IMG/VR virus record: IMGVR_UViG_3300022542_000148
Direction: 5' to 3' (one strand)
Source of the DNA: a virus
Length of the DNA stretch: 38,938 nt
Shown one piece after another: positions 3,227 to 28,866 of this stretch. The notes below the pieces were generated by a model. It ran no database searches. It saw only the letters and a list, made by a program, of their open reading frames with translations, and was not told where the DNA came from. Position 1 is the stretch's first letter. The number at the start of each line of letters is the position of its first letter. A program made the translations under genes and the position numbers.

Positions 3227-3657
3227 CGTTTCCTCCTACTCATCAGTTCAGTAATAAAAGTGTTAGCTATCTTACCTAAGTTAATCTGCTTAGCTATCTT
3301 ATCTATCGTTCGGGCAGGGTAACCTACCAGGACAATGGTATTCATCACATCAAACATACCAGCTATGACGGGAGGCATAGGGCCTAATAGCGCCTGTGGT
3401 ACATACCCAAAGGCGAAGGCTATAAAGAACATGGTGTAGATGAACGGTATCAGAGGTCTGTACGTACGAGTTAACCAGGACTCTGATTGAGTTTCAGCTA
3501 TGGCCATCTGGAAGGCTGCCACTCCTGCCTTCGCATCCTCACTCTTTATCTGGCTAGCTAACTTAATACCGTCCTGTAGAAGGTCCGCCTTCCTGTTCTT
3601 GAGACCGAAGATGCCACCTGTTATAACATTTAACAATCCTATCGCTGCTCCCCACAT
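3223..3657 (-). CDS. Membrane protein, 3-TM holin-like (pattern reminiscent of the GTA-type 3TM holin family)
   Basis: 144 aa; glycine-rich hydrophobic N-terminal segment, amphipathic linker (AAFQMAIAETQSESW), two further hydrophobic helices, basic C-terminus RRKR. Confidence 0.45.
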   Translation of the reverse strand: MWGAAIGLLNVITGGIFGLKNRKADLLQDGIKLASQIKSEDAKAGVAAFQMAIAETQSESWLTRTYRPLIPFIYTMFFIAFAFGYVPQALLGPMPPVIAGMFDVMNTIVLVGYPARTIDKIAKQINLGKIANTFITELMSRRKR

Positions 3658-3980: not shown

Positions 3981-4809
3981 CTTTGTTCTCCCGTATGTCG
4001 TCAGTTATATAATCAAACTTCCTATCTATCGGATGCACCCAGAGCTCCCCTTGTTCCCTACGTAACCACAGCAGTTGTCCTATCTCAAGGATGCGGTCTA
4101 TGCCGTGCTTACTTATTTGGCCCCACTCCTTGTAGATACCGTACACATGCTGCCACATACTCAATTCATCGGTTAGCTCAGATAAATCTTTAATTAATTT
4201 TGATTTATATCTACTGTACCTAAACTTGTATGCAGCCTCCCCATCCTCATCTATAAGCAGTTGGTGATACAGCCCTGGGATGTTATCCACACTATCCCCA
4301 GTGACCAGCTGTACATAGAAGTTTCTAAGTGCTTGATATCTATCAACCTCATAACTCTTTCCTGTTCTGTAATTGTAGTGCACTCCTGCTAACATGTCAA
4401 GGTCTTTATCTATATGGCAGATAACAAAGTCATCGAAGTTATCGAACTCATATGAACGGATACCTACTACATCCTCAGCCTCCTGGCCCACACACAATAC
4501 CGCTCCCCGTTGCTTTACTAAGTACGCACGTAGCTCCCTATAGAACTGTGGACGGTTTGATGTCTCCCTGTTGCCTTTGTAAGGCTTCATCGTAGCTATA
4601 GAATCTCTGTAGTTGGTGTCCGTACCCAAATACAATTCTAACATTGAACATTCTGCACCATCAAGAATGTTATCTACGGATTGCCTCAACAATTTGACAG
4701 CGAATACTCTGTCCTCTTCTAGCTTATCTGTCTGGTAGCCTATAGAGTAGATAAGACTATCAGCATCCACCAAAGCAACCCTCTCTGTTATACTGTGCTG
4801 CTCTTTCAT
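3973..4809 (-). CDS. 5'-3' exonuclease / flap endonuclease (FEN, PIN + H3TH)
   Basis: Motifs VDADSLIY, YKGNRE, GQEAEDVVG, HIDKDLDML, GDSVDNIPG. Confidence 0.85.
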   Translation of the reverse strand: MKEQHSITERVALVDADSLIYSIGYQTDKLEEDRVFAVKLLRQSVDNILDGAECSMLELYLGTDTNYRDSIATMKPYKGNRETSNRPQFYRELRAYLVKQRGAVLCVGQEAEDVVGIRSYEFDNFDDFVICHIDKDLDMLAGVHYNYRTGKSYEVDRYQALRNFYVQLVTGDSVDNIPGLYHQLLIDEDGEAAYKFRYSRYKSKLIKDLSELTDELSMWQHVYGIYKEWGQISKHGIDRILEIGQLLWLRREQGELWVHPIDRKFDYITDDIRENKDE

Positions 4810-5984
4810 TCGTCTTCTCCTATAGTTAATAGTAGTTTCTTCGTTATCATCAACGGTCTATCTAATTCGTTTGAGGGTAGATGAAAGAGTAGGGGTCGTA
4901 GGGATTGTTGGCATACACTCTTCAACCCTCGCGCACCAAGCTTAAGTTCTAGAGCTTGATCTACAATATGGTTTACAGCATCCTCGGTGAAGTATGCCTC
5001 CACTCCATATGATTTGAACTCATTCACTACTTGGGACATGATACAACGTTCCGGAAGAGTGAAGATTTTATAGATCATATCTCTATCTAAGTTTTTTAGT
5101 ACGGCGATGATGGGGAGCCGACCCATTAACTCGGGTATCATACCGTTCGCTGTAAAATCAGATATGGAAGCCTTGTTCAATAGATTAGATTTCTCAGCCT
5201 TAGATAAGAGTGGGGCAGAGAATCCAATACTCTTACCGTCCAAGCGTTTAGAGATGATTTGGTCCAGTCCCGAGAAAGCTCCGCCAAAGATAAACAACAT
5301 GTTGGATGTGTCCACGGTGCCACAATATGTGACACTCTTTATGGTACACTCTGTACCTTCCACTAGTTTTAGGAAGGCTTCTTGTACGCTGCGCCCATTA
5401 ACATCTTTACCATTACTATTACTGGTACGTATCTTATCTGCCTCATCTACATATATGATTCCGTACTCAGCTATTTTCTTAATTAAGTCCGACTTATCGT
5501 AACGACTCATGTAGAGGGTATCGTAATTTTTTTCGACCAACGTACGAGCATTTTCAAATAAATCAATGATGCATTCATCTACATCCCTGCCCACATACCC
5601 AGCAGAGGTGAAGCCGGTGGCATCTTGTATAGTCACAGGCAAAGACACAGCCTCTGCCAACGCCTTGATGAGATGTGTTTTACCACAACCTGTGTTGCCT
5701 ACTAACAGTATGTTATTCTTTTCAAAATAATAATCATCATCTCTTTCGAGTTCTTTATTCTTCATAGACAATAATCTATTCCACGCTGCGATAGCTACTA
5801 ACTCCTTAGCTTTGTCCTGTCCGATCACCGTCCTATTTAATTCCTCCACTATTTGCTTGGGGGTCATCAACTCCACCTCAAAAACATCCTCTCCCGGCGG
5901 ACCTTCTCCCGAACCGTAATTATTCTCGTATTCTTGTATGATAGTTGCCCATGCATTTACATCATTAGCTTTTCTTCTGGACAT
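4806..5984 (-). CDS. clpX: ClpX-like AAA+ unfoldase without an N-terminal zinc-binding domain
   Basis: Collinear with ClpX by eye: VIGQDKAK, Walker A GNTGCGKT, pore loop GYVG, Walker B IIYVDEADK, IGF loop (KSIGFSA), GMIPELMGRLP, GARGLKS; no Cys in the first 44 aa. Confidence 0.85.
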   Translation of the reverse strand: MSRRKANDVNAWATIIQEYENNYGSGEGPPGEDVFEVELMTPKQIVEELNRTVIGQDKAKELVAIAAWNRLLSMKNKELERDDDYYFEKNNILLVGNTGCGKTHLIKALAEAVSLPVTIQDATGFTSAGYVGRDVDECIIDLFENARTLVEKNYDTLYMSRYDKSDLIKKIAEYGIIYVDEADKIRTSNSNGKDVNGRSVQEAFLKLVEGTECTIKSVTYCGTVDTSNMLFIFGGAFSGLDQIISKRLDGKSIGFSAPLLSKAEKSNLLNKASISDFTANGMIPELMGRLPIIAVLKNLDRDMIYKIFTLPERCIMSQVVNEFKSYGVEAYFTEDAVNHIVDQALELKLGARGLKSVCQQSLRPLLFHLPSNELDRPLMITKKLLLTIGEDE

Positions 5985-11218: not shown

Positions 11219-11394
11219 TTCTCACCCACTAAGATTAGAATCACCATAAAAATAAGTAAACCACAGATAAGACCCAAAGGAAACAAGATAGGTAAGAACA
11301 CTAACCACCACGAGGCAGTGATAACACCTGATACCTTCAACACTATAAGTAATAGAGTGGCCAACATAGCCGCATTATTTACTAAAGTTTTCAT
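11215..11394 (-). CDS. Small membrane protein (59 aa, two hydrophobic helices)
   Basis: Not in the ORF track (<60 aa); ATGA start/stop overlaps at both ends. Confidence 0.7.
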   Translation of the reverse strand: MKTLVNNAAMLATLLLIVLKVSGVITASWWLVFLPILFPLGLICGLLIFMVILILVGEK

Positions 11395-11963
11395 GTCATT
11401 AATCCTCCACGAAGTAGATGTCGCACAGCAAAATCATCTATATTATCTAAATATAATTTATACCTTGTACCAGATAAATTGACAATTACCCCCTCTGCAG
11501 GATGAAATCCGTTAACCTTACTGCCATGATCTCTTAGGCCTACTAAGATGCCATGAATAGAATCCAAGTTGAACGGTCCCTTATAGAGTAGGGGAACTGG
11601 CTCAACCAAATGTTTTAATCCCTCGAGCACTTCCAAGAACGGGTCAAAACTAAAAAATTTACGTTCTCGTAACCCTTCAGAGTTCTGAATCCCAGGCCCA
11701 CACCACTCGCCGTAGTGTCTACCTGGACCCAGTACATCATACAAAGCTTGTAGATTCTCCCCAGCCCATTTATAGAACCCAAAGTTATCATGTAGTGCGC
11801 ATAGTTTCCTGTTGCGGGACCCGGCGAACCATTGTATGCAGCCAGAAGAATCCTCCCGAAACGTTATCTGAGCATTTGTACCTTCCATCTTCTGGGTAAT
11901 AATCATGTCTGCGTCCATAAAACGTTTAATCTTAGGCCACCGTTTAAATTCTAAGTCCCGCAT
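11391..11963 (-). CDS. Minimal RNA ligase-like nucleotidyltransferase (Rnl2 / RNA_ligase family, adenylyltransferase domain only)
   Basis: 190 aa; motif I QKMEGTN (T4 Rnl2 has EKIHGTN), YGEWCGPGIQ, AEGVIV, YKLYL; GGAGG SD. Confidence 0.55.
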   Translation of the reverse strand: MRDLEFKRWPKIKRFMDADMIITQKMEGTNAQITFREDSSGCIQWFAGSRNRKLCALHDNFGFYKWAGENLQALYDVLGPGRHYGEWCGPGIQNSEGLRERKFFSFDPFLEVLEGLKHLVEPVPLLYKGPFNLDSIHGILVGLRDHGSKVNGFHPAEGVIVNLSGTRYKLYLDNIDDFAVRHLLRGGLMT

Positions 11964-15084: not shown

Positions 15085-15112
15085 AGTATATCACAGTTAT
15101 CACCATTGTCAA
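15085..15112 (-). promoter_or_regulatory. Leftward sigma70-type promoter
   Basis: Minus strand reads TTGACA-16 nt-TATACT, ~20 nt upstream of the first SD. Confidence 0.7.
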
Positions 15113-15164: not shown

Positions 15165-15212
15165 TTAGGGCCGTTAAGCCTCGTATTAGGGCCTAAGAGC
15201 CTGTTTTAGGGC
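15165..15212. repeat. Three TTAGGGC iteron-like sites spaced 21 and 20 bp apart
   Basis: TTAGGGC at 15165, 15186 and 15206. Confidence 0.7.
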
Positions 15213-15226
15213 TGTTATGTTGGTCA

Positions 15227-15385
15227 CACAGAGAGATCTTGTCAATAATCTTTGAAGATATCTCTCTAGGATACCACAGAGAGATCTTGTCAATAATCTT
15301 TGAAGATATCTCTCTAGGATACCACACAAATTACCACGAAGATTACCAGCTGGTAATTTCTCTAGGATACCACACAAATTACCAA
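15227..15385. repeat. 48-bp-period repeat array: two identical units, one variant unit and a partial fourth
   Basis: 15227-15274 is identical to 15275-15322. TCTCTAGGATACCACA recurs every 48 bp. 15343-15358 is the perfect palindrome ATTACCAGCTGGTAAT. The array is bracketed by GTCACACA (15223) and TGTGTGAC (15407). Confidence 0.9.
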
Positions 15386-15473
15386 GCCTAAAAGTTGTTA
15401 GTAATTTGTGTGACAATTCATACACTTACATACAATATTTACATGTTATTCGGGGCGCGAAGCAGTGAGAGGG

Positions 15474-15673
15474 GATTAACCTTATGCGTCATGATAGCAA
15501 TACTCTGCTTAGCATACTACATACTTATAATAGATATTATTATATATACATGTATATATTATTACAATATATAAACATATTACTATAATATGTATACATA
15601 ATTAGATTATATATACATATCTACTACAGTAGTATTACTAAACAGTGTATATGCTACATAAGGTATTAACCTT
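15474..15673. promoter_or_regulatory. AT-rich unwinding-element-like core flanked by direct repeats (candidate replication origin)
   Basis: ATTAACCTT at 15475 and 15665 flanks 15521-15646, which is almost pure A/T with palindromes TATATACATGTATATA, ATGTATACAT and TACTACAGTAGTA. Confidence 0.45.
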
Positions 15674-15734
15674 GATGCTACGATACTTTCAGGGTATGGT
15701 ATAAGCCATACACCAGAGCTTAAAGAAGATCATC

Positions 15735-15910
15735 GTAATTAAGTCATGTCTCCTACCAGCATCACGCTCTTACAATACTCCCCCGGTTTACTCACTCGGG
15801 GCCATGTCGTGCTGGTCACATACTCCACAGGTGCTATCCCAGAGTATGACAAGAAAGTCTCCCTTCTCACTTAACCCTAAGACGGTGTGCAATACAGCCG
15901 ACTTAATTAC
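15735..15910. other. Structured ~176-nt non-coding element closed by an 11-bp perfect helix
   Basis: GTAATTAAGTC (15735-45) pairs with GACTTAATTAC (15900-10). Internal stems: ACCAGCA/TGCTGGT, CCCCG/CGGGG and CATACTC/GAGTATG. Confidence 0.4.
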
Positions 15911-15919
15911 TTAAAGCAT

Positions 15920-15948
15920 TTGACTTCTCTGCCGATACGCCCTATACT
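15920..15948 (+). promoter_or_regulatory. Rightward sigma70-type promoter
   Basis: TTGACT-17 nt-TATACT, then AAGGAG and ATG 15969. Confidence 0.7.
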
Positions 15949-15968
15949 AGATAACAAAGGAGAAAAAT

Positions 15969-16532
15969 ATGACTGATAAACATAACATACTCAAGTACAA
16001 AGGTATATTATTCAAACATATTAGAAATCACGGCGACTATGCTATTAGTCAATGCGGCCTTATCCTAGACAGGAACGGACTGCTGAAACCGTCTGTAGGC
16101 GCCTATGGGCGACTATTAGTACCATACCTAGAGGCTGACCCAGAGTGGCTTGATATTGTCGTGTGGCGGGCCTGGGTGGGCCTCCTAGGTAACAATCCAC
16201 GAAACATGAGGCATAAGTTGTGTCATGTGGACGGAGATATAAGTAATAACCACTTAAATAACCTTCACCTCATTGATAAAGATGGGAATATAACACCCGC
16301 ACCAGCTATTATAGCTACCGAGGATGTTATCTTCAAGGAACCTGACCTAACTACCTACAGCCCTAAACCCACCAAAAGGGATAAACTTACTGCTGATGAT
16401 GTTAGAGATATTAGACAGTTAGCAATTAGCAACGCAGGCTTTAGGAAGGGAGAGTTAGCTAAGAAGCTCGGCATAGATGTTAGGACTTTACGTAGAGTAT
16501 TGAGACTAGAGTCATGGAAAGACGTTAAGTGA
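15969..16532 (+). CDS. HNH homing-endonuclease-like protein with a C-terminal helix-turn-helix
   Basis: NUMOD4-like N-terminus (GDYAISQCG), HNH core CHVDGDISNNHLNNLHL, C-terminal HTH (GELAKKLGIDVRTLRRV). Confidence 0.7.
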   Translation: MTDKHNILKYKGILFKHIRNHGDYAISQCGLILDRNGLLKPSVGAYGRLLVPYLEADPEWLDIVVWRAWVGLLGNNPRNMRHKLCHVDGDISNNHLNNLHLIDKDGNITPAPAIIATEDVIFKEPDLTTYSPKPTKRDKLTADDVRDIRQLAISNAGFRKGELAKKLGIDVRTLRRVLRLESWKDVK

Positions 16533-16722
16533 TTGATAATATAGGTGATTGGTGTTAGACTTCTTAATCGGCTGTATCACGCACCCTCTTGGGTTTAAGT
16601 GAAGGGATAGAAAATTAACTCATCGCGTTAATGGAGTGCTGACAGCCTAGCGAAGCCGACGACAACGATGTCAACCATTGAACGCCTAACTATCCTATAC
16701 ATTAGACACAGAGGTTACGTAC

Positions 16723-16977
16723 ATGTTAGAATTAACCAGTGAACATGTCTTAGCCCTACTGACGCCAATATTAAGCGCATTGCTGGGATTAGGATTATTT
16801 ATGATTAAGAGACTCGTGGAAAGAATAACGAAGTTAGAAGACAAACAACATAGTAATGCAACAAGACATGAAACTAGAACTATGATTGACGACAAAGTAG
16901 AACCAGTGAATAAGCGTATTGATAACATAGATGCTAAGCTAGACAAGATTATAGATATACTGATACAAGATAAATAA
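16723..16977 (+). CDS. Single-pass membrane protein with a coiled-coil tail (holin or spanin-like candidate)
   Basis: 84 aa; TM segment ~residues 9-27, then a charged heptad-like region; upstream of the endolysin. Confidence 0.45.
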   Translation: MLELTSEHVLALLTPILSALLGLGLFMIKRLVERITKLEDKQHSNATRHETRTMIDDKVEPVNKRIDNIDAKLDKIIDILIQDK

Positions 16978-16978
16978 C

Positions 16979-17052
16979 GGGGCTGAGAAGGGTTCGACAG
17001 GTGTTAAAGTTAAGTCTGCATCTGGACTACGGTTCGATTCCGTACAGCTCCA
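16979..17052 (+). ncRNA. tmRNA tRNA-like-domain-only RNA (mini-tmRNA without an mRNA-like domain)
   Basis: GGGGCUG/CAGCUCC acceptor stem with a G3:U70 wobble and an A discriminator. D-loop analogue GGUUCGAC. GGAC followed by T arm UACGG-UUCGAUU-CCGUA. Only a 6-bp helix and a 15-nt loop sit where the tag ORF and pseudoknots would be. Confidence 0.65.
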
Positions 17053-17080
17053 ATCAAAACCCAGCCAAGAAATAATATGT

Positions 17081-17145
17081 TTAAGGGGTATCTGTGACAC
17101 AACTTTAGGTCACACAGGCTGCGAGTCCTGTCAGATACCTCTTAA
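17081..17145 (+). ncRNA. Y-shaped structured RNA/DNA element (14-bp closing stem plus two 5-bp hairpins)
   Basis: 17081-17094 pairs with 17132-17145 (one G:U). Internal hairpins GUGAC/GUCAC and ACAGG/CCUGU. Confidence 0.4.
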
Positions 17146-17168
17146 GCGTATTAACAGATAGGTAACAC

Positions 17169-17642
17169 ATGAAATTTATAGAGATGAACGCAACAAGTTT
17201 TAAGAGACCCGACCGATGGGTTAACAAGTTCTATATACATTGTAGTGCAGCAGATAATACTACTGTTGGCTTCAAAGGTACTAAGCTGGCTGCCACAATA
17301 GACAGATGGCACAAAGAGAACGGTTGGTCAGGCATAGGTTACCACTTCGTAATAGACAAGAAAGGTAAGCTTGTAACAGGGCGCAACATGGAACGTGTAC
17401 CAGCAGCACAAGGTGGACATAACAAAGGCACATTAGCAGTATGCTTACACGGCCTTAAAGAAGAGAAGTTTACAGAGGCACAATTCGATACATTGAGAGA
17501 GTTATGCAAGACTGCATACAAGGCTTACGGGGGCAATATTACATTCCATGGTCATACAGAGGTATCAGCTAAGACATGTCCTGTATTCGACTATAAAGAT
17601 GTACTTAAGCTAGATAAGCATGGTAGATTGGGATTACTATAG
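17169..17642 (+). CDS. N-acetylmuramoyl-L-alanine amidase endolysin (T7 lysozyme / Amidase_2 type)
   Basis: IHCSAAD, GWSGIGYHFVI, GHNKGTLAVCLHG, HGHTEVSAKTCPVFDY. Confidence 0.9.
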   Translation: MKFIEMNATSFKRPDRWVNKFYIHCSAADNTTVGFKGTKLAATIDRWHKENGWSGIGYHFVIDKKGKLVTGRNMERVPAAQGGHNKGTLAVCLHGLKEEKFTEAQFDTLRELCKTAYKAYGGNITFHGHTEVSAKTCPVFDYKDVLKLDKHGRLGLL

Positions 17643-17651
17643 GAGATTGTT

Positions 17652-17810
17652 ATGTGGAATGATTTACAAGATTTGATAAGACAGGCTAAGAATAAGATGC
17701 CTGTACCGCAACTCAATAGAGAGGACGAAGACACAAAGCCTACTATACGACCTATTCATTTTATTGTATTTATCATAATAACTTGGCTCGGTCTATGGAT
17801 GTTATTATGA
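17652..17810 (+). CDS. Small tail-anchored membrane protein (52 aa), lysis-associated candidate
   Basis: Not in the track; AGGAG 6 nt upstream; C-terminal helix IHFIVFIIITWLGLWMLL; TGA overlaps the next ATG. Confidence 0.6.
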   Translation: MWNDLQDLIRQAKNKMPVPQLNREDEDTKPTIRPIHFIVFIIITWLGLWMLL

Positions 17811-17977
17811 GCAGAAGTGAGAAATACGAGAGCATACTATACCTAAGAGGTAGAATAGCCAAGGCTCAAGCTAAACAAGTCGAGGCATCTGATGTTCAGG
17901 AGATTATACACTGGAACTACATCAGGGAAGTATATTGCAGAAGGCTTCGGGAGCAATTAGATGAGCAGAAGCTATAG
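17807..17977 (+). CDS. Hypothetical protein (56 aa)
   Basis: Start set at ATG 17807 (ATGA overlap). Confidence 0.6.
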   Translation: MSRSEKYESILYLRGRIAKAQAKQVEASDVQEIIHWNYIREVYCRRLREQLDEQKL

Positions 17978-17986
17978 GAGATTGTT

Positions 17987-18148
17987 ATGGATATTGTATA
18001 CGACAATTTTAAGACTTTAGAAATGAAAATCGCCCATTATCAAGATATGCAGGCACAAGCAGAAGACTCTTGGGAGCGGCATACCTGGTACTCATTAGAA
18101 CAAGAGGCACGGACGGAATTAGACCGTAGTAGGTATGAGTTATTATGA
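17987..18148 (+). CDS. Hypothetical protein (53 aa)
   Basis: Not in the track; same AGGAGATTGTTATG initiation region as 17652; ATGA overlap with 18145. Confidence 0.6.
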   Translation: MDIVYDNFKTLEMKIAHYQDMQAQAEDSWERHTWYSLEQEARTELDRSRYELL

Positions 18149-18453
18149 GCAGAAGCCGTAAGAAGACACCTATATCAGGTTGGGGATGCTCTCGTTCCAA
18201 TAAGAAGTTCAAGCAACAGGAACACAGACGCGAGCGTCGAGCTGTCGAGGTTTCCTTGTTAGTTGGTGAAGAGGAAATGCCTCACCCTAAGAGGTACGGC
18301 AACGAGTGGGCATCACCTAGAGACGGTAAGATGTGGTTCGGTGACTATAAGCATGGAAGACCTATATACTGGTCCTTCTGGTCTAACCAGGAGGCTATTG
18401 ATGCATTAAGACAGACGTACATAGACGATTTTAAACGTTGGATGAGGAAATGA
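18145..18453 (+). CDS. Hypothetical basic protein (102 aa)
   Basis: ATGA overlaps at both ends. Confidence 0.7.
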   Translation: MSRSRKKTPISGWGCSRSNKKFKQQEHRRERRAVEVSLLVGEEEMPHPKRYGNEWASPRDGKMWFGDYKHGRPIYWSFWSNQEAIDALRQTYIDDFKRWMRK

Positions 18454-18656
18454 TCATGACTAGAAAATCAACGGATTCAAAAGTATTACGTCCTTACGCA
18501 GAAGGAACAGTCTCGAGAGAGAGCATAATTAGAGCGATTAAAATCGTTAATTTACAGAAAGAGATAGATAAGCTACGAGTAGAGATTACACCGCCTATTA
18601 GAGTAGACGGCCCAGATGCTGATACCAGTATGCGGATACTAAACAAGGAGAACTGA
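18450..18656 (+). CDS. Hypothetical protein (68 aa)
   Basis: Start set at ATG 18450 (ATGA overlap). Confidence 0.6.
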   Translation: MIMTRKSTDSKVLRPYAEGTVSRESIIRAIKIVNLQKEIDKLRVEITPPIRVDGPDADTSMRILNKEN

Positions 18657-18658
18657 TT

Positions 18659-19009
18659 GTGTCAGTAACCCACAAACCAACAACAGAGAATCGAGCTAAG
18701 GTAGCAGCCTTATCCTCATTCGGTATTACACAGCTTAAGATATGTGCTTATCTAGGCATCAGTGAGCCCACACTACGTAAGTACTACGGCCCTGAGCTAA
18801 TCAATGCACGCATAGATAAGATAGTACAGGTAGCTAACGCATTATACCATAACGCTGTATCTAATAACAATGTAACAGCGCAGATATTCTTCTTGAAGAC
18901 ACAAGGCGAATGGAGAGAGACCAATAGAGATGAGACGGCAGAGAAGCCTGACATAGGTAAGATACAAATCGAGGTACTCAACGGTAAAGCGGAGGTCAAA
19001 GATGGATAA
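18659..19009 (+). CDS. Helix-turn-helix DNA-binding protein (small-terminase-like or regulator)
   Basis: GTG start 8 nt after AAGGAG; HTH ITQLKICAYLGISEPTLRKY; AQIFFLKTQGEWRE motif remembered from HTH-type small terminases. Confidence 0.4.
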   Translation: MSVTHKPTTENRAKVAALSSFGITQLKICAYLGISEPTLRKYYGPELINARIDKIVQVANALYHNAVSNNNVTAQIFFLKTQGEWRETNRDETAEKPDIGKIQIEVLNGKAEVKDG

Positions 19010-19190
19010 TACATTCTCATATAAAGGATATACCAGTACCCTAAACTGTGCCGTAGGTGCATATTATGGACAAATCAGGTCTATTGATGCTCTTGTTAGA
19101 TATTGGGGCGGAACGAAAGAATCAGCGAGACGTGACTTCGAGCGCGCTGTTGATTATCATCTCACAACTCTGGAGGTCAAAGATGGATAA
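19002..19190 (+). CDS. HicB antitoxin N-terminal-domain-like protein, copy 1 (62 aa, no DNA-binding domain)
   Basis: FSYKGY...YYGQIRSIDALVRYWGGTKESARRDFERAVDYHL fits the remembered HicB-like pattern YKGY..S......F.G.V.GI.D...F.G.T..E....F...VD.YL. Confidence 0.55.
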   Translation: MDNTFSYKGYTSTLNCAVGAYYGQIRSIDALVRYWGGTKESARRDFERAVDYHLTTLEVKDG

Positions 19191-19377
19191 TACATTCTCA
19201 TATAAAGGGTATATCGGTTCAACACATTATGCCGCGGAGTCTGGTGTATATTACGGACAAATTAGGTCTATCAGTGCTCTTACTATCTATTACGGCTCGA
19301 CAAGAGAATTTGCGAGGCTTGACTTTGAACGCTATGTTGATTATCATCTTACAACTCTGGAGGTCAAAGATGGATAA
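19183..19377 (+). CDS. HicB antitoxin N-terminal-domain-like protein, copy 2 (64 aa)
   Basis: Tandem paralogue of 19002..19190; same start (MDNTFSYKGY) and end (HLTTLEVKDG). Confidence 0.55.
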   Translation: MDNTFSYKGYIGSTHYAAESGVYYGQIRSISALTIYYGSTREFARLDFERYVDYHLTTLEVKDG

Positions 19378-20036: not shown

Positions 20037-20108
20037 GTGGTCATAGCTTAACGGTAAAGCACCTGAATGTGACTTAGGTAGATGTGGATTCGAATTCCAC
20101 TGGCCACC
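20037..20108 (+). tRNA. tRNA-His (anticodon GUG)
   Basis: Hand-folded cloverleaf: acceptor GUGGUCA/UGGCCAC, D stem GCUU/AAGC, anticodon stem CCUGA/UUAGG with loop AUGUGAC, T arm GUGGA-UUCGAAU-UCCAC, discriminator C. No encoded G-1 (U at -1). Confidence 0.8.
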
Positions 20109-20270
20109 CCTAAGCGGATTGATAACGTAAGGTGATGCTCGACGAGTTTGGGGGTAAACCAAGGCAGGTGGACGGACGAAGCTATCACTGTCGTATACTG
20201 ATACAATTAAATATTGTAAATGTATACGCCCCCTAATCTATCGATTGGATTGATGACATAAGGTGAGACT

Positions 20271-27294: not shown

Positions 27295-28074
27295 ATGACT
27301 AGGTCCACGTATTTTGTAGATGTTGTTTCAGGTAATGCGCCTTCTGGGGCGAAAGTAGTACATAAGTTCGGCAGAAATGATGCCGTAGGTACTACTTTCG
27401 CTTCCGTGGCGATGGGCGGAATATGGAGAACACCTCAAGTTGCCGGCGCTACTACTCTTAGAGTGAAGGCGGGCGGAGACGTCGCCGACACAGCTGCTGG
27501 CGCAGGGGCTAGGTCTATTGTCTTAGAGGGAATAGATTCAACAGGCGCCTACGCTACTGAGACTTTAGTGACTGCTGGAGTCAGCGCTAGTGCGAGTACT
27601 TCTACTAGCTGGTTAAGAATATTCAGAGCGTACGTAGGGACTAGTGGAACCTATAGTGTTGTAGTTGCTAATTCACATGCGGATGTAATTACAATAGAGA
27701 ATACGGCAGGAACAGAGGATTGGGTTATAATAGATGCCAATGGTGTAGCAAGAGCGCAGAGTGAGATTGCTGCCTACACTGTACCTACAGGTAAGACGGC
27801 TTATTTAATGGATATCCACTACGCGGTAGATACTACTAAAACGACTGGTATTATTCTATTTCAAAGAGCTGGGATACTACGAGCTTCAGCCCCATATACT
27901 GCTGCTAGAGAATTACTTGTGTTGAGTGGAATAGCATCTTCAGGCACACAAACATTTGAAATACCTTTAGGGCCTTTCAAAGAACATACTGACATATGGG
28001 TAATGGCTAATGTATCAGCTACTACTAGTGAGATAGGTGTAGGTTTTGAGATACTACTTAAAGATAAAGAATAA
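27295..28074 (+). CDS. Virion structural protein of unknown role, paralogue 1 (259 aa)
   Basis: Aligns along its full length with 28084..28866 (HKFG.N.AV.TT, RTPQV.GAT.L..KAG, DTAAG.GA.S, VTAG, SAPY). Confidence 0.6.
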   Translation: MTRSTYFVDVVSGNAPSGAKVVHKFGRNDAVGTTFASVAMGGIWRTPQVAGATTLRVKAGGDVADTAAGAGARSIVLEGIDSTGAYATETLVTAGVSASASTSTSWLRIFRAYVGTSGTYSVVVANSHADVITIENTAGTEDWVIIDANGVARAQSEIAAYTVPTGKTAYLMDIHYAVDTTKTTGIILFQRAGILRASAPYTAARELLVLSGIASSGTQTFEIPLGPFKEHTDIWVMANVSATTSEIGVGFEILLKDKE

Positions 28075-28083
28075 GGAGACGGG

Positions 28084-28866
28084 ATGTCAGCATACCCACC
28101 ATACTATTTAGAAGCGTTGATGGGTAATACCCATTCAGGGGAATCTATAATTCATAAGTTCGGACAGAATAAAGCTGTCGATACTACGTTAGTACCTGTA
28201 TCAGAAGGAGGTATTTACAGAACGCCTCAAGTATCAGGAGCTACAAAACTAAGAATTAAGGCGGGTAACACAAACGACACCGCCGCAGGTTCGGGAGCAC
28301 AGTCGGTATACATCGAAGGTTTAGATGCCTCCGGAGACCCTATAAACGAAGTACTAGTTACAGCAGGCACGAGTGCTGGTGCAGATAGTGTCTATACATA
28401 TTTGAGACTAACTCGTGCCTACGTGTTGGACTCAGGAACATATGCTACAACAGGTGCAGGCTCTCATGCTGCAAACGTAGTAATAGAGAAAGCAGCAGGC
28501 TCAGAAGACTGGGCTACTATATCTTTAAATGGGTATCCAGATAGCCAAACTGAAATAGGTTGGTATACGATACCCAGAGGGAAAACAGGTTTCATAATCA
28601 CACTTGATTATAGTGTGGATTCAACAAAGATAACTACATTACAACTCGTTAAAAGGGCCGGCATACTAGATACATCTGCTCCTTATAAAGCGATGAGGAA
28701 AGTATTAGGTGTAGCTGCAATTATCAGAGATGGACAAAAAGAGTTTCACTCACCTTTAGGACCTATAGAAGAACTATCAGATGTAGGTTTCTTGGCTAAG
28801 ATAGCGTCAGCGCCTACCGCTGCGGTAGAAGTACATTTTGGAATACTATTAAGAGATAACGAATAA
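28084..28866 (+). CDS. Virion structural protein of unknown role, paralogue 2 (260 aa)
   Basis: Tandem paralogue of 27295..28074. Confidence 0.6.
   Translation: MSAYPPYYLEALMGNTHSGESIIHKFGQNKAVDTTLVPVSEGGIYRTPQVSGATKLRIKAGNTNDTAAGSGAQSVYIEGLDASGDPINEVLVTAGTSAGADSVYTYLRLTRAYVLDSGTYATTGAGSHAANVVIEKAAGSEDWATISLNGYPDSQTEIGWYTIPRGKTGFIITLDYSVDSTKITTLQLVKRAGILDTSAPYKAMRKVLGVAAIIRDGQKEFHSPLGPIEELSDVGFLAKIASAPTAAVEVHFGILLRDNE

Follow-up and report, generated by a model that had tools for sequence, protein, structure and literature searches.

Bacteria rescue stalled ribosomes mainly by trans-translation, a pathway regarded as a possible target for antibiotics, and proteins that carry the ssrA tag are substrates for degradation by ClpXP. 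Among phages, a tmRNA reduced to its tRNA-like domain (TLD) is listed by Hudson, Lau and Williams 2014 as 'Mycobacterium phage DS6A (TLD only)' (PMC4131195). Citing Mao et al. 2009, that article states that in E. coli a DS6A-like molecule is a strong inhibitor of tmRNA whether or not it can be charged, and that titration of SmpB is perhaps the cause (PMC4131195); Nawrocki, Petrov and Williams 2025 repeat both the DS6A case and the inhibition (PMC11915505). The latter article also describes CDS-less plastid tmRNAs of about 65 bp in Mallomonadaceae and cites Jacob et al. 2004 for jakobid mitochondrial tmRNAs without the mRNA-like region (PMC11915505). In vitro, a truncated, TLD-only tmRNA accepts peptidyl transfer (Shimizu and Ueda 2006, cited in PMC3895274).

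Here we describe a gene of the same kind in another phage. An earlier note on this DNA, made from the letters alone, had proposed the gene and knew of no described natural TLD-only tmRNA, a statement that the DS6A listing contradicts (PMC4131195). Our keyword searches of the literature returned no description of a widespread phage class of TLD-only RNAs, and neither the breadth reported below for the family nor its strictly conserved chargeability appears to have been published so far.

A TLD-only tmRNA gene

The window, i.e. the stretch of DNA analyzed, is a whole JGI/IMG contig of 38,938 nt, the proteins of which form singleton clusters. The element and its parts are as follows.

16979–17052, plus strand: mini-tmRNA (TLD-only tmRNA) gene, from G1 to discriminator A73, identified with the Rfam tmRNA model and the family model R1
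16979–16985 with 17045–17051, plus strand: acceptor stem GGGGCUG / CAGCUCC, 7 bp with G3:U70, read directly
16990–16998, plus strand: tmRNA-specific D-loop substitute GGGUUCGAC, aligned to the Rfam tmRNA consensus GGaUUCGAC
16998–17024, plus strand: P2 helix, C16998–G17024 followed by 16999–17004 paired with 17018–17023
17005–17017, plus strand: P2 loop UAAAGUUAAGUCU, 13 nt, standing in for the mRNA-like and pseudoknot body of about 300 nt
17028–17044, plus strand: T arm UACGG-UUCGAUU-CCGUA, read directly and from the Rfam alignment
17052, plus strand: discriminator A73, read directly

The 74-nt sequence GGGGCTGAGAAGGGTTCGACAGGTGTTAAAGTTAAGTCTGCATCTGGACTACGGTTCGATTCCGTACAGCTCCA is read at these positions exactly as it had been quoted, and the features that had been pointed out in it, namely an acceptor stem with G3:U70 and a discriminator A, a D-loop substitute, GGAC and a T arm, are all present. 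The GGNUUCGAC D-loop substitute, the GGAC ahead of the T arm and the T loop UUCGANU mark the TLD of tmRNA and form invariant columns in the family alignments; the substitute as it stands here, GGGUUCGAC, does not vary in seed alignments of homologs, and the G-A of its GAC faces the G-A of GGAC at 17024–17027. The central helix had been described as 6 bp capped by a 15-nt loop. It is the same helix, but with the terminal U-G pair included it has 7 pairs (C20-G46 plus AGGUGU/GCAUCU) and a 13-nt loop.

The Rfam tmRNA model RF00023, proposed earlier as a check, matches the element with 60.4 bits (gathering score 47, E 2.3e-21). The alignment spans 16979–17053 and runs end to end (model positions 1–374), with 308 interior consensus positions replaced by 11 nt, which bears out the reading as a tmRNA TLD without an mRNA-like domain. 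The family covariance model R1 scores the element at 65.1 bits (E 3.8e-13), and the acceptor and P2 helices are both present in the ViennaRNA fold (−26.1 kcal/mol, z −2.7). Between the strands of P2 there are the 13 loop nucleotides alone; a resume codon, tag ORF and stop codon are absent, as are pseudoknots PK1–PK4, which no sequence within the element could form. CCA is not encoded at the 3' end, the next bases being AUCA.

Two other assignments were tried and rejected. The element had been held not to fold as a canonical tRNA-Ala; in accordance with this, it has neither D arm nor anticodon arm, the Rfam tRNA model is outscored by the tmRNA model of the same clan, and ARAGORN calls no tRNA, tmRNA or tag peptide there, its sole call in the window being a tRNA-His at 20037–20110. 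A permuted (two-piece) tmRNA is at odds with the standard gene order, and RF04321 reaches 16.1 bits against a gathering score of 47 (E 0.5); this sub-threshold match at 17023–17099 is accounted for by the downstream hairpin, which starts with GGGG.

An independent Logan assembly (SRR7716470) is 100% identical across window positions 15297–19020, and the element is therefore no assembly artefact. The window gene is short, at 74 nt, and the contig also encodes terminase, portal, capsid, tail and endolysin proteins. We regard it as nearly certain that 16979–17052 belongs with DS6A among the TLD-only tmRNAs.

A large and mostly unannotated phage family

A pattern describing a TLD with a short interior matched 10 viral contigs and, when slightly relaxed, 111, compared to 12 contigs with the relaxed pattern in cellular genomes (one genome per species, 185,579 bacterial and archaeal species). 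The mini-tmRNA is thus associated with phages. With the acceptor stem left unspecified, at least 120 viral-contig matches were obtained, and the pooled searches yielded at least 151 unique mature sequences from viral and metagenome contigs, with lengths of 61–87 nt and a sharp peak at 77–80 nt. When 15 members representing all loop classes were compared with the Rfam tmRNA model, all 15 scored above threshold (57–91 bits), and in each case the match ran end to end with the interior deleted. R1, a covariance model built with explicit structure from ten natural, gap-free 79-nt members, gave exactly one match per source in 77 sources and matched none of their many tRNAs. Short-query BLAST with the element returned partial T-arm matches at most.

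ARAGORN takes such RNAs for unusual tRNAs (Glu, Arg) or for tmRNAs, full or permuted, whose tag peptides are implausible (L044 1991–2081, L062 1899–1981, L045 5905–6228, L011 2187–2535). In L045 and L011, tmRNAs with a tag peptide are called across mini elements, and these calls look spurious. Given such miscalls, members of the family are probably mis-annotated in public phage records. For annotation, this means that genes missed or miscalled by ARAGORN can score above the Rfam tmRNA threshold, and that they should be labeled TLD-only rather than tmRNA or tRNA. Judged by its sequence, the element at 16979–17052 is a member of this large, conserved and mostly unannotated phage family; where DS6A stood as the single published example and was treated as a curiosity, there are now at least about 150 distinct variants, including that of the window.

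The members fall into loop classes. In the majority class, a P2 of 7–9 bp is capped by an A-rich 'AAAGCC' motif and a covarying hairpin of 3–4 bp. A minimal class of about 15 members has a 6-bp P2 closed by a tetraloop or pentaloop (61–64 nt in all). The third class, to which the window belongs, has a hairpin-less loop of 12–13 nt with the consensus AAMRUUAAKUYW; a targeted scan found it in 10 viral and 48 metagenome contigs, which reduce to 19 unique sequences. Of the names of these contigs, at least two read 'marine metagenome' and the others name no sample type. Under the conserved loop, P2 of this class covaries (TAGGTG/CATCTA, AGCATG/CATGTT, ATGATG/CATCAT, CAGTAG/CTGCTG, AGAGCG/CGCTCT, GGTGAG/CTTACC). 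The third-class loops appear to resemble the stretch right after P2 of full-length tmRNAs such as that of E. coli; an origin of the class by internal deletion of a full-length tmRNA is only a lead.

Covariation and conservation of the charging determinants

Pair counts were anchored on the invariant motifs, and two MAFFT alignments (A1 and A2) were set aside because their gaps were wrongly placed, both in the linker and along the 3' strand of P2. Counted in this way, acceptor pairs 4–6 are 100% canonical and occur as five or six pair types (41–76% canonical after shuffling). P2 pairs 2–7 are canonical in 98, 98, 92, 96, 89 and 79% of sequences, with all six pair types represented, and the fraction of P2 paired is 0.92 in register vs. 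0.38–0.42 when one strand is slid by 1–3 nt. T-stem pairs 1–3 are canonical in 99–100% compared to 38–54% after shuffling. Taken together, the three stems are 92–100% paired, compared to about 40% in the shuffled or slid controls.

The R1 alignment, which is fitted to the model and whose figures carry that caveat, has 96.4% of cells paired vs. 67.5 ± 0.8% in shuffled alignments (0 of 500 shuffles reach the value), both-sided changes in 17 of 23 pairs, 480 compensatory cells vs. 144 after shuffling, and a covariation score of 0.657 vs. 0.126; slid registers are 41–57% paired. Structural conservation among homologs, on which the earlier note had made its reading depend, is thus strong and family-wide (about 150 variants), the evidence being covariation across the family rather than at the window's own locus.

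The sequences in the R1 alignment came from patterns that fix acceptor pairs 1–4, and the invariance of those pairs is informative solely in the set obtained with the acceptor left free. In that set, among the matches listed, 154 of 160 unique sequences form at least 6 of the 7 acceptor pairs. G3:U70 and A73 are both kept in 152 of these 154 and G1:C72 in all 154, again among the matches listed; CCA is encoded in 61. Because G3:U70 and A73 are kept although the search did not require them, while pairs 4–6 vary freely, charging matters, and the charging determinants are under selection across the family.

The phage and the surroundings of the gene

The genes around the element, and the main modules of the window, are as follows.

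4806–5984, minus strand: ClpX homolog, 392 aa, E 7e-65 to solved ClpX structures, with weaker matches to HslU
11391–11963, minus strand: RNA_ligase (PF09414) protein
16723–16977, plus strand: 84-aa ORF, holin- or spanin-like, with a single hydrophobic helix ahead of a coiled-coil-like tail; matches no family
about 17073–17153, plus strand: branched hairpin, located after the RNA gene and ahead of the start of the endolysin
17169–17642, plus strand: endolysin (N-acetylmuramoyl-L-alanine amidase), PHROG amidase 1.6e-36, Pfam Amidase_2
minus strand: T7-like replication module (exonuclease, DNA polymerase A, gp2.5-like SSB, primase-helicase)
minus strand: MazG, dGTP/dATP diphosphohydrolase, RNA_ligase-family protein, endonuclease VII and the ClpX homolog
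plus strand: HNH protein, lysis region, tRNA-His and endonuclease I
plus strand: terminase, portal, capsid, tail tube, tape measure and fibres

The capsid protein is 53% identical to its counterparts in an Acinetobacter phage and a Paraglaciecola virus, and the closest cultured relatives of this phage are, to judge from such comparisons, distant; a DNA search with window positions 15500–18500 against 50,697 phage records gave no match. The ORFs of the window include no integrase, as had been claimed, and neither an SmpB gene nor a release-factor-like gene was seen in the window.

The earlier placement of the element between a membrane-protein gene and the endolysin is confirmed by the 84-aa ORF with its hydrophobic segment upstream and the Amidase_2 protein downstream. 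The stop codon of the 84-aa ORF lies 1 nt ahead of the start of the RNA gene, which makes it likely that the two are co-transcribed. The hairpin at 17073–17153 is very stable (minimum free energy −40.7 kcal/mol, z −6.4; 0 of 200 shuffles fold equally well), lacks a U tract and matches no Rfam family; it may be processed in the manner of RNase III sites, or it may protect a 3' end. A hairpin of this type is missing downstream of the element in L009, a member of the same loop class. The sole relative found for the amidase (43% identity) is not accompanied by the element.

Other parts of the window are of interest in their own right. The divergent intergenic region at 15190–15625, which separates the replication module from the late one, contains many direct and inverted repeats, with 38-nt arms at 15545–15623 and 37-nt arms at 15323–15412; ORF translations over 15186–15425 contain a repeated peptide, and the best minus-strand match to a sigma-70-like promoter is at 15112–15085. 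This region is possibly an origin or a regulatory region. At 19002–19377 on the plus strand, two consecutive small ORFs have near-identical ends (MDNTFSYKGY...DYHLTTLEVKDG), indicating local tandem duplication. Directly after the major capsid gene, the plus-strand ORFs 27295–28074 and 28084–28866 (about 260 aa each) match the same PHROG family, phrog_8198, whose function is not known, with near-equal scores and have the look of tandem paralogs.

Since ClpXP degrades ssrA-tagged proteins, a ClpX homolog in the same phage as a TLD-only tmRNA is worth noting. The phage protein has no N-terminal zinc-binding domain. Inspected by eye against the motifs of E. coli ClpX, it retains what we take to be the Walker A motif, the GYVG pore loop and an IGF-like ClpP-docking loop (SIGF), and the RKH-loop region appears shortened. 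No match to ClpX was found in the flanks of the other loci that bear the element.

Genomic context across the family

The other element-bearing loci have almost no proteins in common with the window, so that similar RNAs occur in unrelated phages. In about 12 of 60 loci, the element lies within or directly beside a tRNA array, in one case an array of 22 tRNAs. It shares the strand of the upstream neighbor in 104 cases vs. 37 on the opposite strand, and that of the downstream neighbor in 92 vs. 38, with median gaps of 90 and 126 nt, respectively. The 266 flanking proteins belong most often to the prohead protease/major capsid, DnaB-type helicase-primase, terminase, portal and exonuclease families; integrase families are absent from the top 25 on either flank. 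Within the window's subclass, the neighbors are SSB and helicase (L009, L046) or an M15 endolysin-like protein (L135). Since the element may adjoin a replication, a head or a lysis module, its context says nothing about timing.

The flanks of the viral loci contain no SmpB gene. The sole locus with smpB nearby is a contig of a Candidatus Saccharibacteria metagenome-assembled genome (L015), where a 70-nt mini element (3324–3393, plus strand) lies about 600 nt from an smpB homolog (3996–4388, minus strand; 39% identity to E. coli SmpB, E 4e-27). Instead of a phage gene, this locus could hold a cellular CDS-less tmRNA.

Several loci carry further structured RNAs: a Pistol self-cleaving ribozyme about 100 nt upstream of the mini-tmRNA (L045 6093–6154, minus strand), a ROOL RNA (298 bits) adjoining the 22-tRNA array that holds a mini-tmRNA (L012 7248–7806, plus strand), and a RAGATH-24 RNA (L044 871–1073, plus strand).

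Proposed function and alternatives

The reading that we prefer, and regard as somewhat more probable than not, is that the mini-tmRNA acts as a host-charged, SmpB-binding competitor of host tmRNA whose net effect would be to inhibit or divert trans-translation. The RNA would be transcribed together with the lysis-cassette genes and excised in the manner of a tRNA, by RNase P at the 5' end and a nuclease at the 3' end. The host CCA-adding enzyme, a step taken from general tRNA biology, would then be required because CCA is not encoded. Host AlaRS would charge the RNA with alanine via G3:U70 and A73, host SmpB (and EF-Tu) would bind it via the tmRNA-specific elbow, and the RNA would in this way compete with host tmRNA for SmpB and, probably, also for EF-Tu and stalled ribosomes. 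Having no message, the RNA would give no ssrA degradation tag, and trans-translation would be inhibited or diverted during infection.

This mechanism is the most likely one by analogy with the published experiment on a similar molecule and in view of the conserved determinants: the features predicted to be recognized by AlaRS, SmpB and EF-Tu are present in the element and conserved in the family. The earlier note had likewise suggested an alanylated decoy for SmpB and EF-Tu, or an SmpB sponge, and this guess agrees with the published account of a similar molecule. The absence of SmpB from the window and from the flanks of the viral loci was counted in favor of dependence on the host; the existence of other phages with full-length tmRNAs was counted against a benefit of blocking ribosome rescue. 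Because the published inhibition does not depend on chargeability, a pure SmpB sponge leaves the near-invariant G3:U70 and A73 unexplained. Their conservation suggests a further step on the ribosome or with AlaRS and EF-Tu, and leaves room for a role at the level of the ribosome, in tag-less rescue or in a dead-end complex.

Productive rescue without a tag is the first alternative, one that we consider rather unlikely but the best placed of those that follow. The alanylated RNA, with SmpB and EF-Tu, would enter stalled ribosomes and accept the nascent chain, and a release pathway such as ArfA/RF2 or ArfB would then free the ribosome, such that ribosomes on cleaved mRNAs would be recycled and phage proteins would evade ssrA tagging and ClpXP. 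The near-invariance of G3:U70 and A73 argues for selection on charging and hence for a ribosomal step, peptidyl transfer to a TLD-only RNA is cited as occurring in vitro (PMC3895274), and the ClpX homolog is encoded by the same phage. However, in the absence of a resume or stop codon the ribosome would still be non-stop after translocation, the in vivo result given in the published accounts for a similar molecule is inhibition of tmRNA (PMC4131195, PMC11915505), and no gene for a release-factor-like protein was seen in the window.

In an extended and speculative form, which we likewise consider rather unlikely, mini-tmRNAs might be a widespread and for the most part overlooked class of alanine-charged phage RNAs that act on the ribosome, instead of passively sponging up SmpB, and uncouple rescue from ssrA tagging; in the window, the ClpX homolog (without the zinc-binding domain, apparently without the RKH loop, and with the IGF loop kept) would join in taking over the host tmRNA/ClpXP axis.

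An improbable alternative is that the RNA serves as a decoy or countermeasure against a host defence that senses or cuts tmRNA or tRNA, in parallel with phage tRNAs that replace or shield targeted host tRNAs. We know of no defence system that targets the TLD, which weighs against the idea. Nucleases would be candidate targets, as would OB-fold domains resembling SmpB; CoCoNuT type IV restriction systems are predicted to contain such SmpB-like domains, with tmRNA as the predicted ligand (PMC10542128). Many members lie in phage tRNA arrays, and the element has an RNA_ligase gene a few kb away at most, both in the window and in six other loci (L155, L141, L148, L161, L195, L073; 31–38% identity to the window's protein), while gp76 of DS6A is an RtcB-like RNA ligase. 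This co-occurrence suggests a possible link between RNA repair and mini-tmRNAs, but it is found mostly in one group of related contigs, and the case for a defence decoy is entirely circumstantial.

Distinctly improbable, too, is a cis-acting role, in which the tRNA-like fold would be a signal for RNase P and 3' processing to cut the polycistronic lysis transcript between the membrane-protein gene and the endolysin, the released RNA having no role of its own. The position of the element, 1 nt past a stop codon and ahead of a very stable hairpin and the endolysin, would suit such a signal, and the DS6A copy also adjoins lysis genes. Yet any tRNA would do for this purpose; AlaRS identity and the tmRNA elbow would not be needed but have been kept in about 150 variants, and other contexts of the element are unrelated to lysis.

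A very remote chance attaches to the element being a remnant, i.e. either a piece of host ssrA of the attP type, from an integrative element, or a tmRNA pseudogene that has lost its interior and is decaying. The ssrA gene is a common integration site, phage attP sites carry the ssrA 3' end, and one BLAST match of a family member lies on an annotated attR and another beside an integrase. Here, however, the 5' and 3' halves are both present and paired, unlike a 3'-only part of ssrA; the window has no integrase and there is none among the 25 commonest flank families; and the compensatory covariation together with the narrow size range rules out neutral decay. On these grounds, the remnant reading is effectively refuted. 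An aberrant tRNA-Ala used in ordinary decoding, to which the acceptor stem and T arm with alanine identity and the odd tRNA labels given by ARAGORN to two family members might point, is refuted by the structure, which has no D stem, anticodon stem or anticodon and for which ARAGORN is silent and tmRNA is the best Rfam family.

If the preferred reading, competition with host tmRNA, is correct, many unrelated phages have invented or maintained a natural RNA that blocks or diverts trans-translation, which would provide both a tool and a clue to ribosome rescue during infection. The near-absolute conservation of the alanine determinants, which titration independent of chargeability does not explain, opens the mechanism to direct tests. 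What merits further work is how broad the family is and how its stems covary, together with its conserved chargeability and the presence of a ClpX homolog in this phage.

Comparison with known systems

Like phage tRNAs, the element is small, frequently placed in tRNA arrays across the family and presumably subject to the same processing and CCA addition; unlike them, it has no anticodon arm and hence no decoding function. With bacterial tmRNA (SsrA) it shares the alanine-identity acceptor, the GGNUUCGAC/GGAC elbow, the T arm and the base of P2. It differs in having no resume codon, tag ORF, stop codon or PK1–PK4, which together make up about 300 nt of SsrA, and with these parts missing it cannot perform the mRNA half of trans-translation.

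The full-length and two-piece tmRNAs of other phages (Bxz1-like mycobacteriophages, Bacillus phage G, OM43 phage Melnitz) are likewise ssrA homologs that depend on host SmpB. They have kept the tag reading frame, however, and are thought to supply rescue capacity, whereas the mini form cannot tag. The CDS-less tmRNAs of organelles are, like the mini-tmRNA, natural tmRNA genes shrunk to little beyond the TLD, but they are the organelle's own rescue RNA, served by a nuclear SmpB and shaped by reductive evolution; the window element is an extra, virus-borne copy that must act beside an intact host tmRNA.

The closest system is DS6A (tmRNA Website entry 'Phage__Mycobacterium.9'), whose unannotated gene we located with a regular expression at about 28478–28562, after LysA (Amidase_2), LysB (cutinase) and two small ORFs. 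Both are phage genes of about 80 nt with a TLD, a P2 with a short loop, G3:U70 and A73, no tag ORF and an Amidase_2 endolysin gene nearby, and they score alike with R1 (65.1 bits for the window, 62.8 bits for DS6A at 28478–28557). They differ in that DS6A is a temperate actinobacteriophage with an integrase, whereas the window phage has none. The DS6A gene has GCAC for GGAC and the T loop GUUCGAUUC, and falls below the Rfam tmRNA gathering threshold that the window element passes. Its loop, GAAAACCGCACGCGGUAC, has the common motif of the family, of the form 'GAAAACC + small hairpin', in contrast to the hairpin-less loop of the window element, which belongs to the marine subclass. The window element is thus a divergent addition to a known, little-studied kind of phage RNA rather than the first of its type.
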